Shown here: in pieces, positions 11,258-27,515 of the stretch
Numbering within the stretch: the first letter of the stretch is position 1
Layout of the letters: each line of letters starts with the position of its first letter
IMG/VR virus record: IMGVR_UViG_3300030943_000118
Source: a virus
Reading direction: 5' to 3' (one strand)
DNA length: 31,625 nucleotides
Notes under the pieces: generated by a model
Told to the model about the DNA's origin: nothing
Database searches by the model: none
Seen by the model: only the letters and a program-made list of their open reading frames with translations
Position numbers and translations under genes: made by a program

Positions 11258-11473
11258 TTAATATTCTGCTGCTGTTCCTTTTTGAGCGTCTTTATCCATC
11301 AGTTCCTTGAGCCATTCACTTTCGATATCCGGCTTGAATCTTGATTTGTCTTTGTCCCTGTTGGGTCTGTCCTTGCAATCGGCGCAGTTTGTGTATCTTA
11401 TCTCGCTTAGAATCAGATATCGGCCATCCATGCAACCGGCGCACTTTGTCCCCTTTAACCGACCGTCAATCAT
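11258..11473 (-). CDS. small zinc-finger protein (71 aa, CxxC...CxxC)
   Basis: Start overlaps the 3' end of the upstream ATPase gene. Confidence 0.5.
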   Translation of the reverse strand: MIDGRLKGTKCAGCMDGRYLILSEIRYTNCADCKDRPNRDKDKSRFKPDIESEWLKELMDKDAQKGTAAEY

Positions 11474-12380
11474 TTATTAAGTCCCTCCATGCGTACCGAA
11501 TCTCCTGACCGTCGCAGGACATCTGTTTGCTTTGTCTGTCAAAAAACAGATCGGCCATTTTGTCCATCACTCCCAGATCCCTGTTTTTGGCAACCTCTAA
11601 AATATTGCTGCACTGTAACAACGTGTGATCTTCGGGCCAGCGAAACAATGTTTTTGCGCATCTCTTAAAATCACTGCTCACTCTGTGAAGTAAAAATACA
11701 TTGTCTGCAGCATTGGTAAGATCAGCGGTGCCGGATATGTCGTCAATTCTCAAGATCCCCGATTCCGTTTTTCGAGGATGAGCAACAAGAACGATATGAA
11801 CATTTGTTTCTTCTGCAAACTTTTTCAAATTCCAAATAAACTCTGTCTGTTTCGCGTTTCGGTTTGCGTCCGATGCTCCAATGTCTATGCTCATCAGATT
11901 ATCCAGGATGATCACATCAACGCCCTTTACCTCCACGCAGTGCCGCAACATCCCAAAAAGTACATCTAGCTGATTCCCGTAATTGTTGTTGTAAACAAAC
12001 ATCCGCTGATCCAGCCACTGTTTGATCGGAGTCACAACCTCCTGCATTACTTTGAAGTAGTTTTCGTGTTTTGTTGCCAGGGTGTAAGATCTTCCTGCGG
12101 CTAACAGGTATGTCCATTCAAAAACCCTTGACTCGTTCATCTCTCCGGAAAACAGAGCCACCTTTTTATTTTCCTGTACTACCTGCAAAGCTATCTGCGT
12201 TAAGATTGTTGACTTGCCTGCTGCGCGAAATCCAGAGAATACAGACATTTCTTTTTTGTTCAGCCCAATGATCCACTTATCAATCAACCAGATGCCTGTT
12301 TTTATTGACACGATCTGGCTTCGGTCTTTGGGCTTTGCGGTCATGCTTGTAAAAAACCACTTGCCTTTATCCTCGTTCAC
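11466..12380 (-). CDS. DnaB-like replicative helicase / RecA-fold ATPase
   Basis: Walker A GFRAAGKST, Walker B VIILDNL; 304 aa; sits between the replisome organiser and SSB. Confidence 0.65.
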   Translation of the reverse strand: MNEDKGKWFFTSMTAKPKDRSQIVSIKTGIWLIDKWIIGLNKKEMSVFSGFRAAGKSTILTQIALQVVQENKKVALFSGEMNESRVFEWTYLLAAGRSYTLATKHENYFKVMQEVVTPIKQWLDQRMFVYNNNYGNQLDVLFGMLRHCVEVKGVDVIILDNLMSIDIGASDANRNAKQTEFIWNLKKFAEETNVHIVLVAHPRKTESGILRIDDISGTADLTNAADNVFLLHRVSSDFKRCAKTLFRWPEDHTLLQCSNILEVAKNRDLGVMDKMADLFFDRQSKQMSCDGQEIRYAWRDLIND

Positions 12381-13072
12381 AAATCAAAGCCCCCTCCTGC
12401 ATTTTTTATCGGTCCTGCCTTTTTTCCACCGCCTTGGTTCAGATACCCCTCAAACTTATTTGAAAACAGTGTTTCCGGTCTCAGGTACTTTTGCATGTCG
12501 GTTCCAGACCATTCAGCAACCTTGACATCGATAACCGTGTAAAAGCTTTCGAGGGTAAATTTTTCATTCATTCTCGCTTTTATCAGGTCTTTGGTTTTTT
12601 GAGAGGTATGCATATAAGATGTTCCGGCTTTCAAGTTTAAGTAATCAACAATGGTTCTGTATGGCAGTCTTTCCTCTCTCTCTTCACTCTCTTTCTTATC
12701 TATAGTTTCAGTTTCAGTTTCAGTTTCCATATGTTGAACATATGATTTACATGTGTTTAACATATCTTTATCATGTGTACCCTTTTTACTTGCTCTGTTC
12801 TCGCTTCTGCTCTCCGAATAGGCAATTCTTCTGTTTGACTCCTTTTCGAGCTTGATGTTGAAGTACAGCCCGTTTTCATCAATTTTGAAATGTTTGTAAA
12901 TGTCTTTATCATATGATTTACACATCTTCAACATATCTTCTTCTGATAATCGCCCGTTTTGATGCTCGTAACACATGATCCTTATGTACTTTCCGACCTG
13001 TTCGTCCGTCATTAACATCGTTCCAGACAAAAAGTCAGAAGTATAAAATAGAAATGCAGGATCTTTTGCCAT
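12377..13072 (-). CDS. replication initiation protein (replisome organiser, DnaD-like C-terminal region)
   Basis: 231 aa; C-terminal LPYRTIVDYLNLKAGTSYMHTSQKTKDLIKARMNEKFTLESFYTVIDVKVAEWSG resembles the conserved C-terminus of phage replisome organisers (from memory); contains internal DNA and protein repeats. Confidence 0.6.
   Translation of the reverse strand: MAKDPAFLFYTSDFLSGTMLMTDEQVGKYIRIMCYEHQNGRLSEEDMLKMCKSYDKDIYKHFKIDENGLYFNIKLEKESNRRIAYSESRSENRASKKGTHDKDMLNTCKSYVQHMETETETETIDKKESEEREERLPYRTIVDYLNLKAGTSYMHTSQKTKDLIKARMNEKFTLESFYTVIDVKVAEWSGTDMQKYLRPETLFSNKFEGYLNQGGGKKAGPIKNAGGGFDL
12705..12947. repeat. iteron-like repeats inside the replisome organiser gene; candidate origin of replication
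   Basis: Seen in sequence: four tandem GTTTCA/GTTTCC hexamers (12705..12728); 13-mer CATATGATTTACA at 12739 and 12910; 10-mer AACATATCTT at 12759 and 12930; both pairs spaced 171 bp, AT-rich. Confidence 0.4.
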
Positions 13073-15976: not shown

Positions 15977-16741
15977 TTAGTTGTAGTTTTCTGCCTCTTT
16001 CCGTGTAATGAAAAAGTGAATCCCGGTAGAACATTCAATCCATCTATCCTCGTCGAAGTTATCAACACGGACGGTCTCGCCTTTGCGGTAAACAAAACTC
16101 TTGTCATATCCAGAAACCGCTTCATCCGCTCCGATTATTTCGAGCACTACGGCTTCTGAACATCTGCATTTTCGGGTAGTTGCAGAAGATCTCTTTCCGG
16201 TGACCAATAGCTTGACGATCACACCAGATTTTCGAGAATCGTTTCCGTCTCTGGCTGTTTTCCAAGCTATAAAATCGCCTTCTTCGGGGCAGGATAGAGC
16301 GAAAAACGCAGTTGTTTCGTTGTATTCTGCGCGGCTGAGGTCTGCGCTCCTGAGGTCTGCGCGGCTGAGGTTTGCGCGGCTGAGGTCTGCGCTCCTGAGG
16401 TCTGCGCGGCTGAGGTCTGCGCCACTGAGGTCTGCGCGGCTGAGGTCTGCGCTCCTGAGGTCTGCGCGGCTGAGGTTTGCGCGGCTGAGGTCTGCGCGGC
16501 TGAGGTCTGCGCCACTGAGGTTTGCGCGGCTGAGGTCTGCGCGGCTGAGGTCTGCGCTCCTGAGGTCTGCGCGGCTGAGGTCTGCGCTCCTGAGGTCTGC
16601 GCGGCTGAGGTCTGCGCTCCTGAGGTCTGCGAGGCTGAGGTCTGCGCCACTGAGGTTTGCGCGCCTACCGCCGCGATCGTATAGCCATTCTGTATGCAGT
16701 TTTAAAATCTCTTTTAGTTCGTCTGCTGTGTATGTTTTCAA
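15977..16741 (-). CDS. pentapeptide-repeat protein (about 24 A(D/N)LSx units) with an uncharacterised C-terminal domain of about 110 aa
   Basis: ANLSGADLSLADLRSADLSRADLRSADLSRADL... with strict 5-residue period; apparent TTG start with GGAGGG 7 nt upstream. Confidence 0.8.
   Translation of the reverse strand: MKTYTADELKEILKLHTEWLYDRGGRRANLSGADLSLADLRSADLSRADLRSADLSRADLRSADLSRADLSRANLSGADLSRADLSRANLSRADLRSADLSRADLSGADLSRADLRSADLSRANLSRADLRSADLSRAEYNETTAFFALSCPEEGDFIAWKTARDGNDSRKSGVIVKLLVTGKRSSATTRKCRCSEAVVLEIIGADEAVSGYDKSFVYRKGETVRVDNFDEDRWIECSTGIHFFITRKEAENYN
16322..16665. repeat. about 23 tandem near-identical 15-bp units (ctgaggtctgcgcgg and variants) encoding the pentapeptide repeats
   Basis: Seen directly in the sequence; the variants differ at one or two positions. 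Confidence 0.9.
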
Positions 16742-17484: not shown

Positions 17485-18375
17485 TCAAAACTCCATTTTT
17501 ACCTGTATAGGACGGTTTTCAATGGCTCTACAATTGGCAACAGCTTGTATGTAATAGCTTTCCTTTAGTTCAATTCCTATATGCCTGCGTCCCATTTCAA
17601 TGGCAACATATCCGGTTGATCCAATCCCATCAAATGGGTCTAAAACGATGTCATTTGGATTTGTCCAGAGCTCAATACCCCGGCGAATAACAGATAGTTG
17701 CAAAGGGCAGATATGTTTTTCGTCTTTATCTTCCCTTGCACAATCCTTTTGTAAGGTATCACCCTGCCTTATGTCCATCCAAACAGGTGATGCGTACTGC
17801 TGCCATTTGTCTACCGGGAAAGATTCGTTTGTATGTGTTGTTCTTTCGGGATTGTCACCCGGTTTTCTGAATGTTACCAAATAATCAGGCACGCCCTGTC
17901 TGCTCATGCAAGAGTCTTTTTTGATCTGTTTGTGTAATAGTCCCAGCGCCTTTGTTCTTTGCATGGCAACAACGGGATCTTTCCAAATAACAACCTCAGA
18001 GTGATAGATCATACCGGCCTGCTGCATCCCTCTAATAACATCGCCCCTAAGATCTCTCAGACCTATTACGCCGTCGCGTTCTTTCATCAAAGGCAGATTC
18101 ATGCAATGAACGGAAATCATTCTTCCGGGCATCATGACACGCACCCACTGACGAATCAGAAACTCGTAATGATCCCAAAATTCCGAATATGTGCGGCTGT
18201 TGCCTAAGTCTCGTTCACTGTTTGAATATGTATACAAAGATGCAAAAGGTATGGACGTAATTGAGTAGTGTATAGAGTTATCCGGGATCCCCTGCATGAC
18301 CTCACATGAATCCCCGTTATAAATTGCAAATTTATCTCCAATCTCTTGATTCATTACCTTTATGCTGCCAGCCAT
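17485..18375 (-). CDS. DNA methyltransferase (N6-adenine / N4-cytosine type, beta-class motif order), orphan
   Basis: N-terminal catalytic-type motif SIPF (variant of D/S-PP-Y/F) and C-terminal AdoMet motif LDPFDGIGSTG; no restriction endonuclease gene adjacent. Confidence 0.7.
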   Translation of the reverse strand: MAGSIKVMNQEIGDKFAIYNGDSCEVMQGIPDNSIHYSITSIPFASLYTYSNSERDLGNSRTYSEFWDHYEFLIRQWVRVMMPGRMISVHCMNLPLMKERDGVIGLRDLRGDVIRGMQQAGMIYHSEVVIWKDPVVAMQRTKALGLLHKQIKKDSCMSRQGVPDYLVTFRKPGDNPERTTHTNESFPVDKWQQYASPVWMDIRQGDTLQKDCAREDKDEKHICPLQLSVIRRGIELWTNPNDIVLDPFDGIGSTGYVAIEMGRRHIGIELKESYYIQAVANCRAIENRPIQVKMEF

Positions 18376-19739
18376 ATGGGTATCTCCATTTCTATCTGAG
18401 GGTTATACTCCTCTGTTTCTCGATATGTTTTTCTTACTTCCCTTTCGATGGACGCACGCGAGAATCCGGCCAATTTTTCAAACATCTCAATGGATTGCTG
18501 TTCTTTTCTTTTGATGTTTTCTCGAACGGCGCCCTCTGCTTCTGATGTGATGATGTAAACATTTACCGGCTGTATCTGTCCAAATCTCCAGCATCTGCGA
18601 ATGGCCTGATACATCATTTCGTAACTGTCAGAAAGTCCAACAAAAACCATGTTATTGCACTGCTGCCAGTTCATTCCAAATCCTGCTATCGATGGTTTAG
18701 AAATCATGATCCGAAACTTTTCTTCAGCAAATCCGATTAGACAATCCCTTTTATAGTCTCGATCATCGGATCCTTTTACTTCCGTTCCTCCTGACATTTT
18801 TGTCAGCATTTCGGATTCTGTGTTTAAGTCACACCACAATAACCACTGTCCCGGATCCTTTTTTATTAAGTCAACGGCCATCTGGCAACGGTCCTCTTTG
18901 CTGTCCCTGCGTGCGGTCCTGCGTTCTGTGAGTGTTGAAGCAATTGCCGGTACAAACATCAGCTGCCCGTCTATTTCTCCGTTTTCTGACTCGACTATGA
19001 TTTCTTCAATATTTAATGGAGGTAAATCGTATCCAATGTTTTCATAACCTAAATCAGAAGGTTTTCGAACGACAATAGCCCACTGGCTGATCCATTCCCA
19101 AAACTTATCCTCAGCATGTCCTTTTAAAATCCACTTTGCTGTTTCTCCTCCGTCATGATAGAAAAACGTTGAAAGCATCTCCGTTCTGGACATGACACCC
19201 ATGAATTCAGAATGATTCCCAAGCTCCACATAATCGTTTGGTGCCGGTGTAGCGGAACAAGCGAGCTTATAGGGAGTATCACGAAATGTTGTAATAATTA
19301 ACTCTCTGGTTTTCGAATTGAAATGCTTCAATATTCCTGATTCATCCAGAACTATTCCAGCAAATACAGCAGGATTAAAATGTTCTAACATATCATAGTT
19401 TGTAATGTTTATACCCTGGATAACATCTTCTTGTGTCCGACATACATTGACTTCATATCCAAACTTTATGCCCTCTTTTTTTGTCTGATTGGTTACGGCC
19501 AACGGTGCCAGTATTAATACTGGTTTTCCTGTATGGTTTACAACCTGTTGTGAAAATTCAAGCTGCATAGCGCTCTTTCCGGTTCCTGTGTCGGTAAACA
19601 GACAGTAACGCCCTTTTTTGACAGCCAATGTAACAACGTCTTTCTGCCAATTAAACAGATTGCTATTAATTTCAGTTGGTTCAAATCCACTTGGTGTGAT
19701 GGCAAATCTTTTTGATTCCAAAAATTCTTTATATTTCAC
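18360..19739 (-). CDS. SF2 helicase (SNF2/DEAD-like)
   Basis: Motif I DTGTGKS, motif II VLDESG, motif III SATPAPN, motif VI QAIRRCWRFGQ; GTG start with GGGAGG 7 nt upstream. Confidence 0.8.
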   Translation of the reverse strand: MKYKEFLESKRFAITPSGFEPTEINSNLFNWQKDVVTLAVKKGRYCLFTDTGTGKSAMQLEFSQQVVNHTGKPVLILAPLAVTNQTKKEGIKFGYEVNVCRTQEDVIQGINITNYDMLEHFNPAVFAGIVLDESGILKHFNSKTRELIITTFRDTPYKLACSATPAPNDYVELGNHSEFMGVMSRTEMLSTFFYHDGGETAKWILKGHAEDKFWEWISQWAIVVRKPSDLGYENIGYDLPPLNIEEIIVESENGEIDGQLMFVPAIASTLTERRTARRDSKEDRCQMAVDLIKKDPGQWLLWCDLNTESEMLTKMSGGTEVKGSDDRDYKRDCLIGFAEEKFRIMISKPSIAGFGMNWQQCNNMVFVGLSDSYEMMYQAIRRCWRFGQIQPVNVYIITSEAEGAVRENIKRKEQQSIEMFEKLAGFSRASIEREVRKTYRETEEYNPQIEMEIPIWLAA

Positions 19740-19965: not shown

Positions 19966-20205
19966 TTAAGCTGATTTGGAAAGTCTTTCAGGGGAAAATC
20001 CAAGAAGATAATCAACGGAGCACCCAAACGTATCTGCCATTTTTACAAGATATTCCGACGGACACCGCATATTGTCGGATTCCCACGAAGACAGTGTTTT
20101 CGATGAAATTCCGAGTTCTTTTGCTAGCGTTACCTGCGACTTTCTAAGCCGTACCCTCTCTGATCCAATTCTATTTTCGTTTGCTGAAAATGATGAAGCC
20201 ATTTG
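19966..20205 (-). CDS. XRE-family HTH regulator, Cro-like (first gene of the early operon)
   Basis: HTH LRKSQVTLAKELGISSKTLSSWE and C-terminal ADTFGCSVDYLLG; likely start MASSF at 20205 (AGGAGGGAGG upstream). Confidence 0.75.
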   Translation of the reverse strand, partial: QMASSFSANENRIGSERVRLRKSQVTLAKELGISSKTLSSWESDNMRCPSEYLVKMADTFGCSVDYLLGFSPERLSKSA

Positions 20206-20367
20206 CCTCCCTCCTTTCTCCAAGTCTTTCTTGTAGTCTTGGCATTAGCTTATAACTTAAAATTGTATGTGTCAACGGATTTTAGGAACAATTAAAAGAA
20301 TTATTTGTAGTTTTTATTGTTTTCTACAAATTCTTGTAGTACAATGCGAATACAAGGAGGTGATAGC
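20206..20367. promoter_or_regulatory. divergent switch region with promoters and operator-like repeats
   Basis: Minus-strand -35 TTGACA (20270..20275) with a TATAAG-like -10; plus-strand -10 TACAAT (20340..20345); inverted repeat ATTTGTAG-N13-CTACAAAT (20303..20331); 10-bp direct repeat TTCTTGTAGT at 20228 and 20331. Confidence 0.6.
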
Positions 20368-20721
20368 TTGGCTATACAAATGAGACTTAAGGAATTACGC
20401 AAAAAACGGGGATACACGCAAGTAAGCATGGCGGCCGCTTTGGGCGTAAATTACGGTTCATATCGAAATTGGGAACAGGGCGTAAATCAGCCCGACAATT
20501 ATGATATCGAGAAAATTATTGATCTTTTGAATACAACAGCGGACTACTTATATGGGAGAACAAATAATCCAGAAAGAAGTGTTTCTTATTCTGATCCAGA
20601 TAAGGCTTGGCTTATGGATAAAATAGAAAAATCAGGTAAGGTCGAGTTGTCGCAGATTAGAAGGGTTTGGGAGGCATTTTATGAAGAGCAGAAACGCCCA
20701 AATATCAACGTTTTCAGATAG
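20368..20721 (+). CDS. XRE-family HTH regulator, CI-like repressor candidate (no peptidase domain)
   Basis: HTH LRKKRGYTQVSMAAALGV...; TTG 20368 lies 7 nt after AGGAGG (alternative ATG 20380; ORF-track start 20317). Confidence 0.7.
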   Translation: MAIQMRLKELRKKRGYTQVSMAAALGVNYGSYRNWEQGVNQPDNYDIEKIIDLLNTTADYLYGRTNNPERSVSYSDPDKAWLMDKIEKSGKVELSQIRRVWEAFYEEQKRPNINVFR

Positions 20722-21144: not shown

Positions 21145-21798
21145 CTAAACCCTTACAACTCCCGGATAATCCGGATTGATGCTGATCCACAAATTCGGCT
21201 GATTCTGGATTCTGCCCCAGGTGCCCGATACTTCCGCAATGCCAAGAGTGAGCTTATCCTTAGCGAGAGCAATGTGGTCGCGTGACTCAATGCTTGCGTC
21301 CGGTGTCTTATGTATCCACGTGTCCGCTACTACCTTGATGGCGAATAGGCACGGATCGGCTTCGGGATAGCGCAGAACATAGATAAACGGACTATCGTAA
21401 TACGCCTGTTTGCGGATTTCCCGACCGTTTCCGTCGCCATAGCGACCGTCATAATCGGACTGTGCCTGTACGATCTGACCGTTGCCGATGAAAAACGCCG
21501 CATGTCCGCCCTTTGTTGCTGTTTTCGGACGCAGGAGAATGTCGCCTCTCTGCAAGCCCGCGCCGGTACGAAGATTGATGCGCGATGCAATGTTCTCAAA
21601 TCCTGCCGTAAGCAATGGAGCAAGCATATCGCCCGTATAGGAAGCACCGCCTGTGTTGAATCCTGCCGCTTTGAGTCCGTCAATGACAATCTTCGAGCAG
21701 TCGGTATCTCTGTCACCTCTGCGGGCCTGTGAGTACCCATGATAATTGTCTGACGCTATGCTTTCGGCATATTGTACGGCTTTTTCGATTTTGCTCAT
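21145..21798 (-). CDS. endolysin, NlpC/P60-like cysteine peptidase with a C-terminal binding-type domain
   Basis: Catalytic-type Cys in RDTDCSKIVIDG and His in GGHAAFFIGNG; ATGA overlap with the upstream holin gene. Confidence 0.7.
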   Translation of the reverse strand: MSKIEKAVQYAESIASDNYHGYSQARRGDRDTDCSKIVIDGLKAAGFNTGGASYTGDMLAPLLTAGFENIASRINLRTGAGLQRGDILLRPKTATKGGHAAFFIGNGQIVQAQSDYDGRYGDGNGREIRKQAYYDSPFIYVLRYPEADPCLFAIKVVADTWIHKTPDASIESRDHIALAKDKLTLGIAEVSGTWGRIQNQPNLWISINPDYPGVVRV

Positions 21799-22178
21799 AC
21801 CGCCTTACCTCGCAAGATGTACGCCTCAATCTGCGCTTTCAAATATGCCTGTATGTCAATATTGTGCTCTGATAAAAATGTAATTGTAGACTCTGATATT
21901 TGATTTTCCACAATAGCTCGAGCCTTATCGAGTGCCTGCAACTGTTCGTCCTTTGACCAGACCCCATCTTTGGTTGCGTCTTTGAGGTCAGTGACAAATG
22001 TCTGTGTGACCGCGTCGACGGCAGTCGCTACTGCTGATCCGATATCGGTCAGCATGTGCTCTAACTTTTCGTTGTCGGTCTTTGATGCCAGGTACTTCAC
22101 GCCAGCGTTAACCAGGATGATCATACAGGGCGCCAAAACCAGAGTGATTAATGAGATGATGATTTCTGTCCATTCCAT
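21795..22178 (-). CDS. putative holin
   Basis: 127 aa with an N-terminal TM helix (IIISLITLVLAPCMIILVNAGV) directly upstream of and coupled to the endolysin gene. Confidence 0.55.
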   Translation of the reverse strand: MEWTEIIISLITLVLAPCMIILVNAGVKYLASKTDNEKLEHMLTDIGSAVATAVDAVTQTFVTDLKDATKDGVWSKDEQLQALDKARAIVENQISESTITFLSEHNIDIQAYLKAQIEAYILRGKAV

Positions 22179-22750: not shown

Positions 22751-24970
22751 TTACATTCTCTGGCCATGTATTGTTCTATAGCTAAAACTTTGATGTGAAC
22801 TTCCTTTTACATTTAGATTTGTACTAGACAACAATGAAAAATTTATTGTTTCACCCACCGAAGCATGTAAACAGAAAGGGATAGAATATACAAACCAACC
22901 ATTCGTATTTACACCAAACAAGGTTTGAAAATTACCCTCTGGTGCTTTTACTGATAAATAAACATCACCGTTTGCCGCCCCTGTAAGAATTGAAAATACT
23001 CCAGAAAAAACTCCAGTAAATGGGCAAACATAAGCAAACTCTGGAAATACCCATTCACTATTTGCCAATGATTGGTTCTCTGCAAACGCTGTAAAAACAG
23101 TCCTGACAAAGGCTTGTCTTGCTATGATTTCACCAGACGCAGCGCCAATAAATGTTGTAGGCATCCAAACTTTCAAGGGCACTGCATTACTTCCCACAGC
23201 CGCAGAACCTCCTGCAACATCCGCAGTGACACCGGTATTAGATAAATCAATGGATTTTAACTCTCTGTACTTTGGACCGCTCCCCTGAGACCATAAATAC
23301 GTAAATTGTAAGGCCAATTGTTTCAAGAAATTGACACCATTATCATTAGAATCTTCTCTCAAAAATGCAGTGCTTACTTTGCCGCCTCTTGTTGCTGCGG
23401 GATTAATAGAGGGCAAAGACGATCGCGCAAAAAAACCTCCCTGATACATTCGCGAAGCTATGGTTTCATAAACCGCAGATAGGTCCGTATTGCTTGTGTA
23501 CCATTGTGTTAACGATTGGGTCTTTATTTCTCCGGTACTTAGATTGAAAAATGACTTCCCGTCTGCGCTGCTAAGCGCGCCTGAAGCCACAATCCACTCT
23601 ACATTGATACCAATAGCAGTGAGTACCCTCGCAAGGATATTGCCTGTTGCATCATAACCAAGCCATGTAACGCCGCCATCTGCAGAATATGTAAAGGTTG
23701 TTGCTGTCTGCCGCCAAATGAAGATACTGTCCGCCCGCAAAGGGTGATCGTGTTGGTAGTAAATGACTGACCCGTCCGGAAGTGTTTCCGATGACGGGTA
23801 AAGCCCCGTTGACTGCGCGGAGAACTCATTAAGTTGAAGCATTGCCTGCTGGTACGTGGTCAGTTTCTGCACCGCGATTTGTTCTTGTTGCGCAATGGCA
23901 GAAAGTTGCTTTTCAGCCGCAGGTTTATACTTTGCTAAAGCTGTTGCCCTGCCAGCCGCCGATAAAACGGAATGACCGCGATATGAGTAATTATGTGTCA
24001 TGATTTTCGTAGTAATGGTTGACGCATCCGGGAGAACTATCGATATAGCATCGGTCGCCAAAAAAGACGGATCACCCTGCAAATCGCAGTCGAAAATATA
24101 GTAGCTTGATGCGCCGATGTCCACCCAAATTCCATTAAGGATCGCCTGAACATTCTGCCCCAACAAAAACGGATTCTCGGCAAGCGATAAACAATAGTTG
24201 TTTGTACCGGCCCTGTAGGTCGTCTGGACGTTGTTCGTGTCCATGGCGACATACTCAACACCGGTCAAACTGATCTGCACGGGATCGCATTTTAGAGAGT
24301 CTCGAAGCGCAGGCGTAATTGTCATAATTGGCGTTGTACCGTACCAAACGAACTCAAGCACGCCCGCCCGGGAGAACCGAGCGACCTTACCGCAGATCAT
24401 GGCCAGATATCCGATAGCATCACGGCAGGTCATTCTCGAGCTCTCGGGAATACCTTCCAAAGTGATTGCGCTGTTTGTTCCGGCTATACCGGTTGTCGTG
24501 ATCCCGCAAGCCAGACAGATTTTGTTAAGCGCCTCACTGATCGAGCACGGGAAAGTAATCCCTGCCAAATAGTAAGGACGCTCTGTCAGCACCATACGGT
24601 CATAGGCTTTTATCGGAATGGTTTTCATCCCGCGTAAGGCCTCGACAATAATAAAGTAGCCAAGGTTTACCCATTCGCGGGCAGCTCCTACCATTAACCC
24701 TACTTGACCAAGCAGTGCGCTATTTTGTAAAGACACATTGTTTAGTTCTCCGGAGAGATTCAATAAGGTCAAATCCAACTCAGACATGACTGTGGTCCCG
24801 ATGGATATCTCACTCCCGGAGGCTGTTGATTCTGTGTATTTCATGGATCCCGCGAGGATGTTTGCGTCCCCCAGTGTAGTATTCGGAGACCCATACACGG
24901 TGAGGGATGCGGCATAATCCCTCGCTATTGTCGGATTGGCCAGAATTGCCAGGTAATCATTTGATGGCAT
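22751..24970 (-). CDS. tail-associated protein (Tal-like; candidate tail endopeptidase / receptor-binding protein)
   Basis: 739-aa ORF after the tape measure and a small tail component; GAGGAG RBS; assignment by size and position. Confidence 0.65.
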   Translation of the reverse strand: MPSNDYLAILANPTIARDYAASLTVYGSPNTTLGDANILAGSMKYTESTASGSEISIGTTVMSELDLTLLNLSGELNNVSLQNSALLGQVGLMVGAAREWVNLGYFIIVEALRGMKTIPIKAYDRMVLTERPYYLAGITFPCSISEALNKICLACGITTTGIAGTNSAITLEGIPESSRMTCRDAIGYLAMICGKVARFSRAGVLEFVWYGTTPIMTITPALRDSLKCDPVQISLTGVEYVAMDTNNVQTTYRAGTNNYCLSLAENPFLLGQNVQAILNGIWVDIGASSYYIFDCDLQGDPSFLATDAISIVLPDASTITTKIMTHNYSYRGHSVLSAAGRATALAKYKPAAEKQLSAIAQQEQIAVQKLTTYQQAMLQLNEFSAQSTGLYPSSETLPDGSVIYYQHDHPLRADSIFIWRQTATTFTYSADGGVTWLGYDATGNILARVLTAIGINVEWIVASGALSSADGKSFFNLSTGEIKTQSLTQWYTSNTDLSAVYETIASRMYQGGFFARSSLPSINPAATRGGKVSTAFLREDSNDNGVNFLKQLALQFTYLWSQGSGPKYRELKSIDLSNTGVTADVAGGSAAVGSNAVPLKVWMPTTFIGAASGEIIARQAFVRTVFTAFAENQSLANSEWVFPEFAYVCPFTGVFSGVFSILTGAANGDVYLSVKAPEGNFQTLFGVNTNGWFVYSIPFCLHASVGETINFSLLSSTNLNVKGSSHQSFSYRTIHGQRM

Positions 24971-24972
24971 AA

Positions 24973-25308
24973 TTACAACTCCTCAAAAGCAATAGAGGAC
25001 TCCCACTGATCATCCATGATCATGTTTTCGTCGCTCGTCCGTACCTTGAAAGTACCCGTCAGCTGACTGCCCCTGCACAGATACGTCATTGTGAAATACG
25101 CACTAGCGATAAGAGCCGCAAAGGCAGTCAGTTCAGCATCGGTAAAAGTAAACTCAACCGAAATCGTCGCTTTCCCGGCTCTCACTCGCTGATCCCAGTC
25201 GATGCCGGTTTCAGAAGTTCCGGATTCGGCAACGACATCTTCTTTGTGCACAGAATATGTGTTAATCATGTTATCTAAATCCGTTGTTCCAATCGTTAAA
25301 ATTGACAT
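24973..25308 (-). CDS. tail component, possibly a short distal tail protein
   Basis: ORF 24973..25317; likely start ATG 25308 (AGGTGA 5 nt upstream) just after the tape measure stop. Confidence 0.5.
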   Translation of the reverse strand: MSILTIGTTDLDNMINTYSVHKEDVVAESGTSETGIDWDQRVRAGKATISVEFTFTDAELTAFAALIASAYFTMTYLCRGSQLTGTFKVRTSDENMIMDDQWESSIAFEEL

Positions 25309-25313
25309 CCATA

Positions 25314-27515
25314 TCACCTGTTTTTCTTAATGGCGTAATTGTCCGCCGCTTTGACAACGATTTCCTCTATCTGATTACCGCCTACATAGACCGGAATAAA
25401 GATGTTCTCCGGCCCTTTTCTCGTGACAGTTTGAGGCAGATTGGCAAGATTGGACATAAATGCCCGGAGCGCCGTTGTCTCGTTTGGTACTGACCTACCG
25501 TAAGCCTGCCCCTGCATCTGCGACACCATGCCGCTTGCAGATACAGCCTGTGCTGCCTTGAGTGCATTCTCAGATGATTCTACTGATGCATCCTCAAGCA
25601 AGTAGGCGTTATCGTCAACGCCCTTTGCCGCACCTGCCGGAATTTGTTTACCGACCTGTTTCGCGAATACCCGCGACGGTGATTTGATTCCAAGAAAATC
25701 TTTAACGGTTTGCAGCGCCTTGGCAGCAGCTTCTTTGGCGGCATCTCCGAGCTTCGAAGCTGCATCCGTGATTCCTTTTTTCACTCCATCGATGATGTTC
25801 TTTCCGAGCGTACCCCAGTCGATTTTCCCCAAGGCTTCCTTGATCTTGTCGAATATTTCGGGTCCTGATTCGGACAGGGCGCTCGCCGCGTCGATGATTC
25901 CAGTTAAGAGGGCTCCTATGATCTCAATAGCGGCTTCTATGATCATCGGGAGCGCATTAATAAGCGCCGTTACAATAGAGATGATGATGTCCGGCACCAT
26001 TTCGATCAGCGCCGGGATTGCGGAAACAAGCCCCTCTATGAGAGCGATAAGAATCTGCACGGCCGTCTCGATAATCATCGGGAGGTTTGCCATTAAGGTG
26101 TCGACTATGGTTGTGATCAATGTGGGAAGCATAGCAACCAGTTGTGGTCTTGCAGATGCTATTCCCGTGATCAGTGCCAAAAGAATCTGAATGGCTGCCG
26201 TGATGATAAGCGGCAGATTGTCGATAAGCACCTGTACGATTGTACCGACAGTGTCAACCATCATCTGAATAAGTTCAGGGATCATCCCTGTGATGCCATT
26301 TACAAGAGCAAGTAGAATCTGAATTCCTGCATCAAGAATTAATGGCAGGTTTTCCATGAGGGTTGATACAACCGTCGTAACGCATGTAACCATGGCGGGG
26401 ATAAGTGTAGGAAGCGCCGCCGCTATGCCCGTGATAAGGCTTGTAAGCAGCGTCATTCCGATAGTAAACAGTAGAGGTAAGTTTGTCGTAATGGTTGTAA
26501 TGAGTCCGGTAACTATTCCGACTCCTGCGGTTGCCAGTGTAGGAAGCTGTGCAATTAAAGCATTAAGCAGTGTAGTAAGAAAGCTATTCGCCATAGTGAT
26601 TACAGCCGGCAGTTGAGCAGTGATCCCGCTAAGGATCTGCCCGACTACTCCGCCGGCCGCACTAATAAGCCCCGGTATGCCGTCCTTGGCGAAAGCATCA
26701 GTTAGAGTTGATACCATGCCGATAGCTTCAGGCAGGAGTGTCTTTGTCAGGCTATCCGAGATAGGCTTAACGACTTCGCCAACCAACGAATTAGCATTGT
26801 CCTTGAGTGTACTGATAAGTCCGTCGAATGTTGTCGACGCGGTTTCCATGCCCTTGTAGAACTGACCGCCCTCGGATGTTGCTGTCTTGAATGCAGCCGT
26901 GAGTTCGTCCGCGGATATTCCGCCCTTGGACATCCTGTCTGTGAGCTCCGACATTGATTCGCCGGTCTTTTCCGAGATGACTTTTAGCGGATTAAATCCT
27001 GCCTCGATCATCATCTGACAAGTCTCGCCGGTGAGCTTACCCATCGAATTGGCTTTACCGAATGCATTTGTAAGGGAACCGAGTTTTTCAGCGTTCCCGA
27101 GAGACACATCTCCGAGCATCGTGAGTATTCCAGTCGAATCATCAGCAGCCACGCCAAAAGCCAATAGGGTAGTTGTCGCCGTTGCAAGATCAGACATCTC
27201 AAACGGAGTAGCAGCTCCCAGCTTCTTGAGTTCATTGACCTTCGCTACAGCTGCCTCTTCGCTCCCAAGCATGGTCTTAAAATTTGCAGTGTAGTTTTCC
27301 ATTTGAGCATTGTATTTAACGCCGGAAACGACCAGAGCGCCCATGCCGGTACCAACTGCTGCAAGTGCTCCGACTGTGATGCCGGCCATGCCCGCCGCGG
27401 CTGATCCGATCGCTCCAAAGCCTTTGGATGCAAACGATCCAAGCCCCGACAAACTAGACTTAAAACCAGACTCATCTAGTTCGGTCCCGATCTTGATTGT
27501 GCCGTCGTTTGCCAT
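25314..27515 (-). CDS. tail tape measure protein
   Basis: 733 aa with Gly/Ala-rich N-terminus, repeated NLPxII...AIQILLALIxGI segments and a C-terminal SPSRV motif; sits between the chaperone genes and the distal tail genes. Confidence 0.85.
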   Translation of the reverse strand: MANDGTIKIGTELDESGFKSSLSGLGSFASKGFGAIGSAAAGMAGITVGALAAVGTGMGALVVSGVKYNAQMENYTANFKTMLGSEEAAVAKVNELKKLGAATPFEMSDLATATTTLLAFGVAADDSTGILTMLGDVSLGNAEKLGSLTNAFGKANSMGKLTGETCQMMIEAGFNPLKVISEKTGESMSELTDRMSKGGISADELTAAFKTATSEGGQFYKGMETASTTFDGLISTLKDNANSLVGEVVKPISDSLTKTLLPEAIGMVSTLTDAFAKDGIPGLISAAGGVVGQILSGITAQLPAVITMANSFLTTLLNALIAQLPTLATAGVGIVTGLITTITTNLPLLFTIGMTLLTSLITGIAAALPTLIPAMVTCVTTVVSTLMENLPLILDAGIQILLALVNGITGMIPELIQMMVDTVGTIVQVLIDNLPLIITAAIQILLALITGIASARPQLVAMLPTLITTIVDTLMANLPMIIETAVQILIALIEGLVSAIPALIEMVPDIIISIVTALINALPMIIEAAIEIIGALLTGIIDAASALSESGPEIFDKIKEALGKIDWGTLGKNIIDGVKKGITDAASKLGDAAKEAAAKALQTVKDFLGIKSPSRVFAKQVGKQIPAGAAKGVDDNAYLLEDASVESSENALKAAQAVSASGMVSQMQGQAYGRSVPNETTALRAFMSNLANLPQTVTRKGPENIFIPVYVGGNQIEEIVVKAADNYAIKKNR

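Follow-up and report, generated by a model that had tools for sequence, protein, structure and literature searches.

We analysed here a two-gene module on the phage contig IMGVR_UViG_3300030943_000118 from IMG/VR, a stretch of 31.6 kb which is referred to as a whole as the window and in which nearly all genes lie on the minus strand. The module consists of a Snf2-type ATPase gene, called the helicase in the following, and a DNA methyltransferase gene whose catalytic motif IV reads SIPF and whose motif I is predicted to bind S-adenosylmethionine (AdoMet). The features of the module are:

18360–19739, minus strand: minimal Swi2/Snf2-type ATPase (double-stranded DNA translocase), 459 aa, GTG start
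19572–19589, minus strand: helicase motif I (Walker A), T51-G-T-G-K-S56; G52, G54 and K55 invariant in 33 aligned members
19341–19346, minus strand: helicase motif II (Walker B), D132-E133 within LDESG; both invariant in the same 33 members
18576–18608, minus strand: helicase motif VI, Q378-AIRRCWRFG-Q388, with Snf2-like arginine fingers and the Snf2-type pattern QxxxRxxRxGQ; Q378, R382, R385 and G387 invariant
18360–18387, minus strand: gene junction with methyltransferase ATG at 18375–18373, helicase stop at 18362–18360 and 16-nt overlap
17485–18375, minus strand: beta-class DNA amino-methyltransferase of the helicase-linked SPPF family, 296 aa
18244–18255, minus strand: methyltransferase motif IV (catalytic), S41-I42-P43-F44, aligned with SPPY of PDB entry 2zie and SPPF of the family
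17611–17640, minus strand: methyltransferase motif I (AdoMet binding), D246-P-F-D-G-I-G-S-T-G255, the form of the family termed D-state below

The methyltransferase matches the Pfam family PF01555 (N6_N4_Mtase) with 81 bits over residues 38–278 (cut-off 26.7, E 1.6e-22) and phrog_67 of the PHROG collection with E 4e-41; the closest solved structure, TTHA0409 (PDB 2zie), aligns over residues 18–275 with E 6.7e-20. An AlphaFold model from a 46-sequence alignment reached a mean predicted local distance difference test score (pLDDT) of 90.5 and a predicted template modelling score of 0.89, and its top Foldseek matches in the PDB were TTHA0409, rotifer N4CMT, CcrM and M.PvuII, all beta-class enzymes, with a probability of 1.0. 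Motif IV precedes the target recognition domain and motif I, and this order assigns the enzyme to the beta class. An initial annotation, made from the letters of the sequence, had located an AdoMet motif DPFDGIGSTG near the C-terminus and SIPF in place of the usual motif, in beta-class order. Both placements were borne out, the former at residues 246–255 of 296 and the latter at residues 41–44, where SIPF stands column for column opposite TSPPY of TTHA0409 (TSIPF against TSPPY) and SPPF of the family and is thus identified as catalytic motif IV. Across 46 aligned members, S41 and P43 show no variation, and conservation of F44 is at least 90%; in the FxGxG element of motif I (F248-D-G250-I-G252) G250 is invariant, as is the neighbouring S253, and F248 and G252 are conserved to at least 90%. 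The enzyme is apparently a catalytically competent beta-class amino-methyltransferase. Since its motif IV opens with serine, the residue that marks the N4-cytosine subgroup SPP[Y/F], and since N4CMT and M.PvuII belong to its nearest structures, the target base is probably cytosine, methylated at N4. With M.PvuII (SPPF), N4CMT (SPPY) and the putative methylase TTHA0409 (SPPY) it shares the fold, the motif order and the leading serine of motif IV, but identity to them is 15–22%, and it differs by isoleucine at the second position of motif IV and by its dedicated Snf2 partner.

The helicase combines two RecA-like lobes that contain Snf2 inserts with a long helix at the C-terminus (residues 400–442) and a disordered tail (439–459), which corresponds to the linker of fused relatives. 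Its Pfam matches are weak: Helicase_C reached 26 bits, and ResIII, SNF2-rel_dom and DEAD stayed under the cut-off, with 18.5 bits for SNF2-rel_dom at a threshold of 24.9, compared to 31–34 bits in fused relatives. The PHROG family phrog_62, 'DNA helicase', was matched with E 6.8e-55. In the AlphaFold model (pLDDT 88.5), all of the 50 best Foldseek matches in the PDB were Snf2 motors (E ~1e-16 to 3e-18), among them Mot1, Ino80, CSB, Chd1, ISWI and DDM1. The motif III residues T164, P167 and N168, which are invariant in the family, are present in the helicase as well. The Snf2 motor model covers all 459 residues, and no nuclease domain was found within them. By its predicted fold, the partner of the methyltransferase is an ATPase of superfamily 2 (SF2), more exactly of the Swi2/Snf2 type.

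The initial annotation had placed the start of the methyltransferase within the last codons of the helicase gene, and its ATG indeed overlaps the 459-aa Snf2-type open reading frame (ORF) by 16 nt. Because a direct reading of the sequence places GGAG at 18387–18384, 8 nt 5' of this overlapping ATG, translation of the methyltransferase is plausibly coupled to that of the helicase. We also considered a programmed frameshift that would fuse both ORFs and rejected it, since no slippery heptamer is found in the 16-nt overlap, a good Shine–Dalgarno sequence precedes the ATG, and junctions vary in related split loci, from a 4-nt overlap to a gap of a few nucleotides.

An exhaustive HMMER search with the methyltransferase family in 1.84 billion cluster representatives returned 461 matches at E <= 1e-30, and the genomic context of related loci shows that linkage to the helicase is the defining feature of the family. 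A full-length helicase homologue abuts the methyltransferase or is fused to it in 55 of 55 independent loci. Eleven of them were fetched via the methyltransferase alone from genomes and cultured phages, and in all eleven the helicase homologue (41–57% identity) lies on the same strand, directly upstream or fused; these are the bacterial or assembly loci of Tissierella, Pseudoflavonifractor, a Clostridia metagenome-assembled genome (MAG), a gammaproteobacterial MAG and the Logan-assembled contig L005, and the phages Synechococcus S-CBS3, Dulem virus 39, Flavobacterium FCV-1, Mycobacterium Ramsey, Gordonia GMA1 and EBPR podovirus 1. The other 44 loci are from IMG/VR and likewise all carry a linked helicase homologue, in one case with both genes separated by an insert of 913 nt. 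In two of the 44 (L023 and L024; IMG/VR 3300045988_119783 and _143024) the order is reversed, with the methyltransferase first and the helicase start ~22 nt later. The linkage is kept even upon this reversal, which speaks for a functional rather than an accidental association. Of the 150 best representatives of the family, 74 have both proteins fused into a single polypeptide of ~730–800 aa, e.g. S-CBS3 gp40 (754 aa) and the FCV-1 protein (729 aa). The tight coupling to an SF2 ATPase proposed by the initial annotation thus stands, although its weight was underestimated there: the conserved and often fused two-domain module is itself the real feature of the locus.

The pair in the window is one copy of a very widespread and already annotated phage module. 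Ramsey gp65 and gp66, GMA1 Orf62/63, EBPR podovirus 1 gp52/gp50 and the fused proteins of S-CBS3 and FCV-1 are homologous to it over the full length, with 41–57% identity in the helicase and 43–72% in the methyltransferase, in the same order, abutting or fused; members from cultured phages bear no more than the labels 'DNA helicase' and 'DNA methylase'. They differ from the window by SPPF and mostly by an S/T...E form of motif I, whereas the window combines SIPF with a D...T form. The module is found in unrelated phage backbones (L005, for instance, encodes PolA, VapE and Dcm) and coexists with separate replicative or other helicases, namely a DnaB-like protein in the window and a second, canonical SNF2 helicase in L005, and it is not simply the only methylase or helicase of its phage. 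A plasmid search returned only five matches, on large replicons; the module is essentially phage-borne and not a feature of conjugative elements. No match was obtained when the 3.3-kb region was compared at the nucleotide level with 50,697 phage records.

Several relatives of ~1060–1100 aa (P0130, P0132, P0141, P0196, P0204 and P0224) carry inteins (Hint, Intein_splicing and LAGLIDADG domains), which sit in Snf2 lobe 1 or inside the methyltransferase domain. Inteins usually occupy genes that an element cannot lose, and their presence in either domain suggests that the module is important to the phages that carry it. Beside the module, extra DNA methyltransferases were observed, a Dcm-type enzyme (PF00145) in L005 and gp69 in Ramsey (L013). 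Together with the second SNF2 helicase of L005, these additional genes lie at L005:7776-9500 and 12494-12897 and at L013:4937-6280. One 1304-aa relative (P0259; L016:307-4221), on a metagenomic contig of 4.8 kb, continues after the Snf2 and methyltransferase core into two HMG boxes, a domain type typical of eukaryotes, so that a eukaryote, or a virus of eukaryotes, may have acquired the phage module. Furthermore, the stand-alone methyltransferases P0112 (DAH63453.1) and Dulem virus 39 XCD07459.1, of 298–308 aa, are labelled 'helicase of the snf2 rad54 family' in GenBank, a label which probably stems from fused relatives and constitutes a spreading misannotation.

The surroundings of the module in the window comprise the following larger features:

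22751–27515: tail genes
21145–22178: holin and endolysin
20317–20721, plus strand: CI-like helix-turn-helix (HTH) repressor, phrog_8 with E 1.6e-22, HTH_3/HTH_31 in the gene calls
19966–20223, minus strand: Cro-like HTH protein, matching the transcriptional regulators phrog_8/4/3, HTH_3 in the gene calls of L006/L008
19729–19923, minus strand: 64-aa ORF between the Cro-like gene and the module, in the same leftward operon
11466–12380: DnaB-like replicative helicase, separate from the Snf2 ATPase

The divergent CI-like and Cro-like genes form a putative lysis–lysogeny switch beside the module. Within the leftward early operon, the module comes before all other large units and directly after the Cro-like gene; the same position directly after a Cro-like gene is found in EBPR podovirus 1. 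In transcription order, the methyltransferase is followed by a number of very small ORFs, after which come a pentapeptide-repeat protein, DUF1351, Erf and NinB/Orf, then a replication initiator, the DnaB-like helicase, a single-stranded DNA-binding protein (SSB) and a resolvase, and later the genes for terminase, portal and head. The scanned parts of the window showed no integrase. The initial annotation had further stated that a cognate restriction enzyme is missing, with which our scans agree: near the pair no restriction enzyme was found, PHROG scans of all larger neighbours returned replication, recombination, lysis and regulation functions only, and the ORFs immediately downstream of the methyltransferase, at 36–81 aa, offer no nuclease candidate.

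We propose, with a probability of roughly 0.6, that the module carries out early, motor-assisted methylation of phage DNA and thereby shields it from host restriction. Self-protection of the phage against restriction by the host had already been suggested by the initial annotation and is plausible. In this model, a Snf2-type double-stranded DNA translocase and a translationally coupled SPPF-type amino-methyltransferase would be produced from the head of the early operon, beside the cro/cI-like switch, and would work together in a single complex, as is suggested by the natural fusions. The ATP-driven motor would carry the methyltransferase along phage DNA, or clear and remodel proteins bound to it, so that incoming and replicating phage DNA would be methylated fast and hence be protected. 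A precedent for an anti-restriction role of phage methyltransferase–SNF2 dyads is P1 DarB (PMC5512222). The DarB-type 'DNA methylase-helicase dyad' (Iyer et al. 2017, PMC5512222) also joins an amino-methyltransferase to a Swi2/Snf2-clade ATPase on a mobile element, and motor-assisted methylation of incoming DNA against restriction was proposed as its role. The module in the window is however not a member of the DarB dyads. DarB is a giant, virion-packaged protein whose methyltransferase is of the gamma class (EcoKI/TaqI-like, with NPP(Y/F)), carries an N-terminal LPD36 domain and lies N-terminal to the helicase (PMC5512222), while the window has a small beta-class S-x-P-F enzyme, which lies downstream of, or in fused relatives C-terminal to, the motor, is expected to be expressed from an early operon and, with 296 aa, leaves no room for an extra domain.

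Several points weigh against this proposal. The need for a motor is left unexplained by it, and the protection given by a sequence-specific methyltransferase is limited to restriction enzymes with the same site. The N4-cytosine assignment draws solely on the motif IV serine and the nearest structures, of which TTHA0409 is itself a 'putative' methylase. Literature searches for experimental work on the helicase-linked SPPF family found none, and only the general paper on DarB-type dyads (PMC5512222) was retrieved; methylation, ATPase or interaction data for any family member were not found in these searches. Finally, several phages have recombination or replication genes next to the module (SSB in the case of Dulem virus 39, an annealing protein in that of Ramsey, with GMA1 as a further case), which makes a role in DNA metabolism possible.

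This last point leads to the alternative which survives best, although we consider it rather unlikely, namely that the motor remodels or clears the template for replication, recombination or transcription and that the methyl mark is an epigenetic signal, which could distinguish replicated from unreplicated DNA, time packaging or bias the decision between lysis and lysogeny. Besides the neighbours just named, the adjacent cro/cI switch in the window is in line with such a function, and so is the conservation of the enzyme: over 119 lineages, conservation in the region presumed to recognise DNA equals that in the catalytic core, so that the methyltransferase is evenly conserved as a whole, unlike methyltransferases that track diverse restriction specificities. 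As a hint from sequence comparison, this evenness would fit a common or relaxed specificity better than the tracking of many host systems, and would fit a regulatory role equally well. Against a metabolic role, however, phages have their own replicative helicases, the module moves as a cassette among unrelated replication modules, and the known phage methyltransferase–Snf2 precedent is anti-restriction (DarB, PMC5512222). Protection from host restriction is preferred here over a function in DNA metabolism.

Compared to the consensus (D/N/S)-P-P-(Y/F/W), SIPF fits at positions 1, 3 and 4, but not at position 2. Within the closest database homologues (69–99% identity) SIPF is kept in 119 of 120, the exception being P0113 with FSPPF. 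For the wider family, motif IV was counted over 126 aligned sequences from among the best HMMER matches, one of them being misaligned at the motif:

SPPF: 107 of 126
SIPF: 11 of 126, 8 of them in the clade of the window
SVPF: 2 of 126
SPAF: 2 of 126
SLPF, STPF and SPPY: 1 of 126 each

In a neighbour-joining tree, replacement of the first proline by isoleucine, valine, leucine or threonine is distributed over ~8 scattered lineages; since this tree is crude, the number of ~8 independent S-x-P-F origins is approximate. Relatives as close as 70–73% identity to the window enzyme (P0113 and L018–L020) have FSPPF. The codon of I42 is ATA in the window and ATC in L005 and L017, and the codons of S41, P43 and F44 also differ synonymously, from which we conclude that the site is under purifying selection.

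Motif I exists in two mutually exclusive states in the family. The first, (S/T)246-P-F-x-G-x-G-S-E254, is found in 92 lineages, and the second, D246-P-F-x-G-x-G-S-(T/V/I)254, in 25, the window showing the D...T form with residues 246 and 254 encoded at nt 17640–17638 and 17616–17614. From the alignment, the acidic residue of motif I appears to have been relocated between a site before PF and a site after GS. This D-state was observed in 7 of 8 lineages lacking the first motif IV proline, in contrast to 18 of 111 SPPF lineages (Fisher p = 6e-5, a value not corrected for phylogeny). Additionally, the residue before the motif IV serine is usually T or S, instead of F or Y, in the non-proline lineages. 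This covariation hints that the loops of motifs I and IV may have been adjusted together, but taken alone it is no sign of a new reaction.

A more specific version of motor-assisted methylation would take these exchanges to be functional: Snf2 translocation would be required, since the motor would processively move an N4-cytosine methyltransferase of low specificity, and the change from FSP to TSI together with the Asp/Glu swap would retune its pocket. We regard this version as doubtful. If true, it would make the module the beta-class, motor-first counterpart of DarB.

The initial annotation had read isoleucine in place of proline as a possible sign of unusual target-base chemistry or specificity. 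Examples would be another acceptor atom or a double methylation as carried out by N(I/L)PY rRNA dimethyltransferases. Strict conservation of isoleucine in the clade of the window and its covariation with the preceding T/S and the motif I D-state would be in line with this reading, as would human DIMT1, an active amino-methyltransferase whose catalytic core has the non-standard sequence NLPY and which makes m6,6A (PMC10915109). However, the close relatives at 70–73% identity carry FSPPF on an otherwise identical scaffold, the substitution has arisen at scattered places in the family, the catalytic serine, the second proline and the stacking phenylalanine are intact, and the other active-site motifs are canonical for the beta class, DPFxGxGST being the canonical form of motif I. 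In beta-class enzymes of solved structure, two contacts fix the target amino group, one from the side chain at position 1 of motif IV and one from the first proline (in CcrM, Asp31 and Pro32), and the aromatic residue of the motif stacks on the target base (PMC10406627). The contact of the first proline reads there as one by the backbone oxygen rather than by the side chain (PMC10406627), and isoleucine would retain this oxygen. DIMT1, which exemplifies the KsgA/Dim1-type rRNA adenine dimethyltransferases and is active with an aliphatic residue for the first proline (PMC10915109), belongs to another methyltransferase class and acts on RNA, so that the analogy covers tolerance of the substitution only; rare NLPY variants also occur among REBASE gold-standard enzymes (bioRxiv 10.1101/2023.12.13.571470). 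With SPPF as the norm of the family, FSPPF in close relatives, scattered recurrence, a backbone contact and NLPY precedents, new chemistry is improbable, and the substitution gives it no support. By sequence comparison, SIPF is a recurrent, selectively maintained, conservative and probably harmless variant of SPPF.

It is still less probable, and in our view very much so, that the module is a phage-borne restriction-modification (R-M) type of defence or superinfection exclusion system, similar to type III R-M, DISARM or Hma, in which the methyltransferase would mark self and the helicase would restrict competitors. The combination of a beta-class methyltransferase with an SF2 ATPase recalls Mod and Res of type III, and the helicase gave weak PADLOC matches to ZorD, DpdE, HmaA and DrmD (E 3e-8 to 1e-2). 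These PADLOC scores are however far below family level, and the methyltransferase matches only generic type II or orphan methyltransferase models; membership in a defence system known to PADLOC was rejected on this basis. Type III enzymes (Mod2Res, e.g. EcoP15I) have in common with the module a Mod-like beta-class methyltransferase, an SF2 ATPase partner and ATP-dependent movement along DNA. They differ by a Res subunit of another SF2 branch with a PD-(D/E)xK nuclease and by mod preceding res, whereas in the window the helicase gene comes first, the ATPase is of the Snf2 type and a nuclease is lacking. A type III assignment was likewise rejected, since the Snf2 motor fills the 459 aa and the ResIII profile stays below threshold. 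The ATPase is thus fully explained by a Snf2 motor without a nuclease domain, no nuclease gene lies beside the pair, and in scanned relatives of more than 1000 aa no nuclease or effector domains were found, but inteins or, once, HMG boxes. That the methyltransferase is a dead pseudo-enzyme with an eroded motif IV, which merely targets the Snf2 motor to DNA, is hardly credible: motif IV does deviate from (D/N/S)PP(Y/F/W), and eroded beta-class partners are known (METTL14 with EPPL, MTA9 with NALW; PMC7544214), but the second position alone is altered, conservation of S41, P43, F44 and the AdoMet-binding glycines is complete or almost complete, purifying selection acts on the site, and most family members have a perfect SPPF.

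The locus is real but ordinary in kind, and its interest lies in the coupling of motor and methyltransferase and in the covariation of two active-site motifs. SIPF alone matters little; its main lesson is that this family can do without the first proline of motif IV. The pairing of a remodeller-type motor with a DNA methyltransferase is among the most widely spread two-gene cassettes of tailed phages; it is carried by hundreds of 50%-identity clusters from many bacterial phyla and is often fused or invaded by inteins. The service of the motor to the methyltransferase, once shown, would explain a common phage counter-defence, and the module would offer a simple prokaryotic model of remodeller-assisted DNA methylation, comparable to DDM1/HELLS in eukaryotes.

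A minor observation concerns the pentapeptide-repeat protein, encoded ~750 bp downstream of the methyltransferase (15977–16741, minus strand, 254 aa, DUF5758-like C-terminus). Pentapeptide-repeat proteins can mimic DNA, and by analogy this one might be a second anti-defence gene of the same early operon. Its gene contains a 15-nt tandem repeat of 22.5 copies (16326–16663), and in the phage contig L007, which is otherwise near-identical, the corresponding product has only 164 aa, so that the number of repeats is variable.

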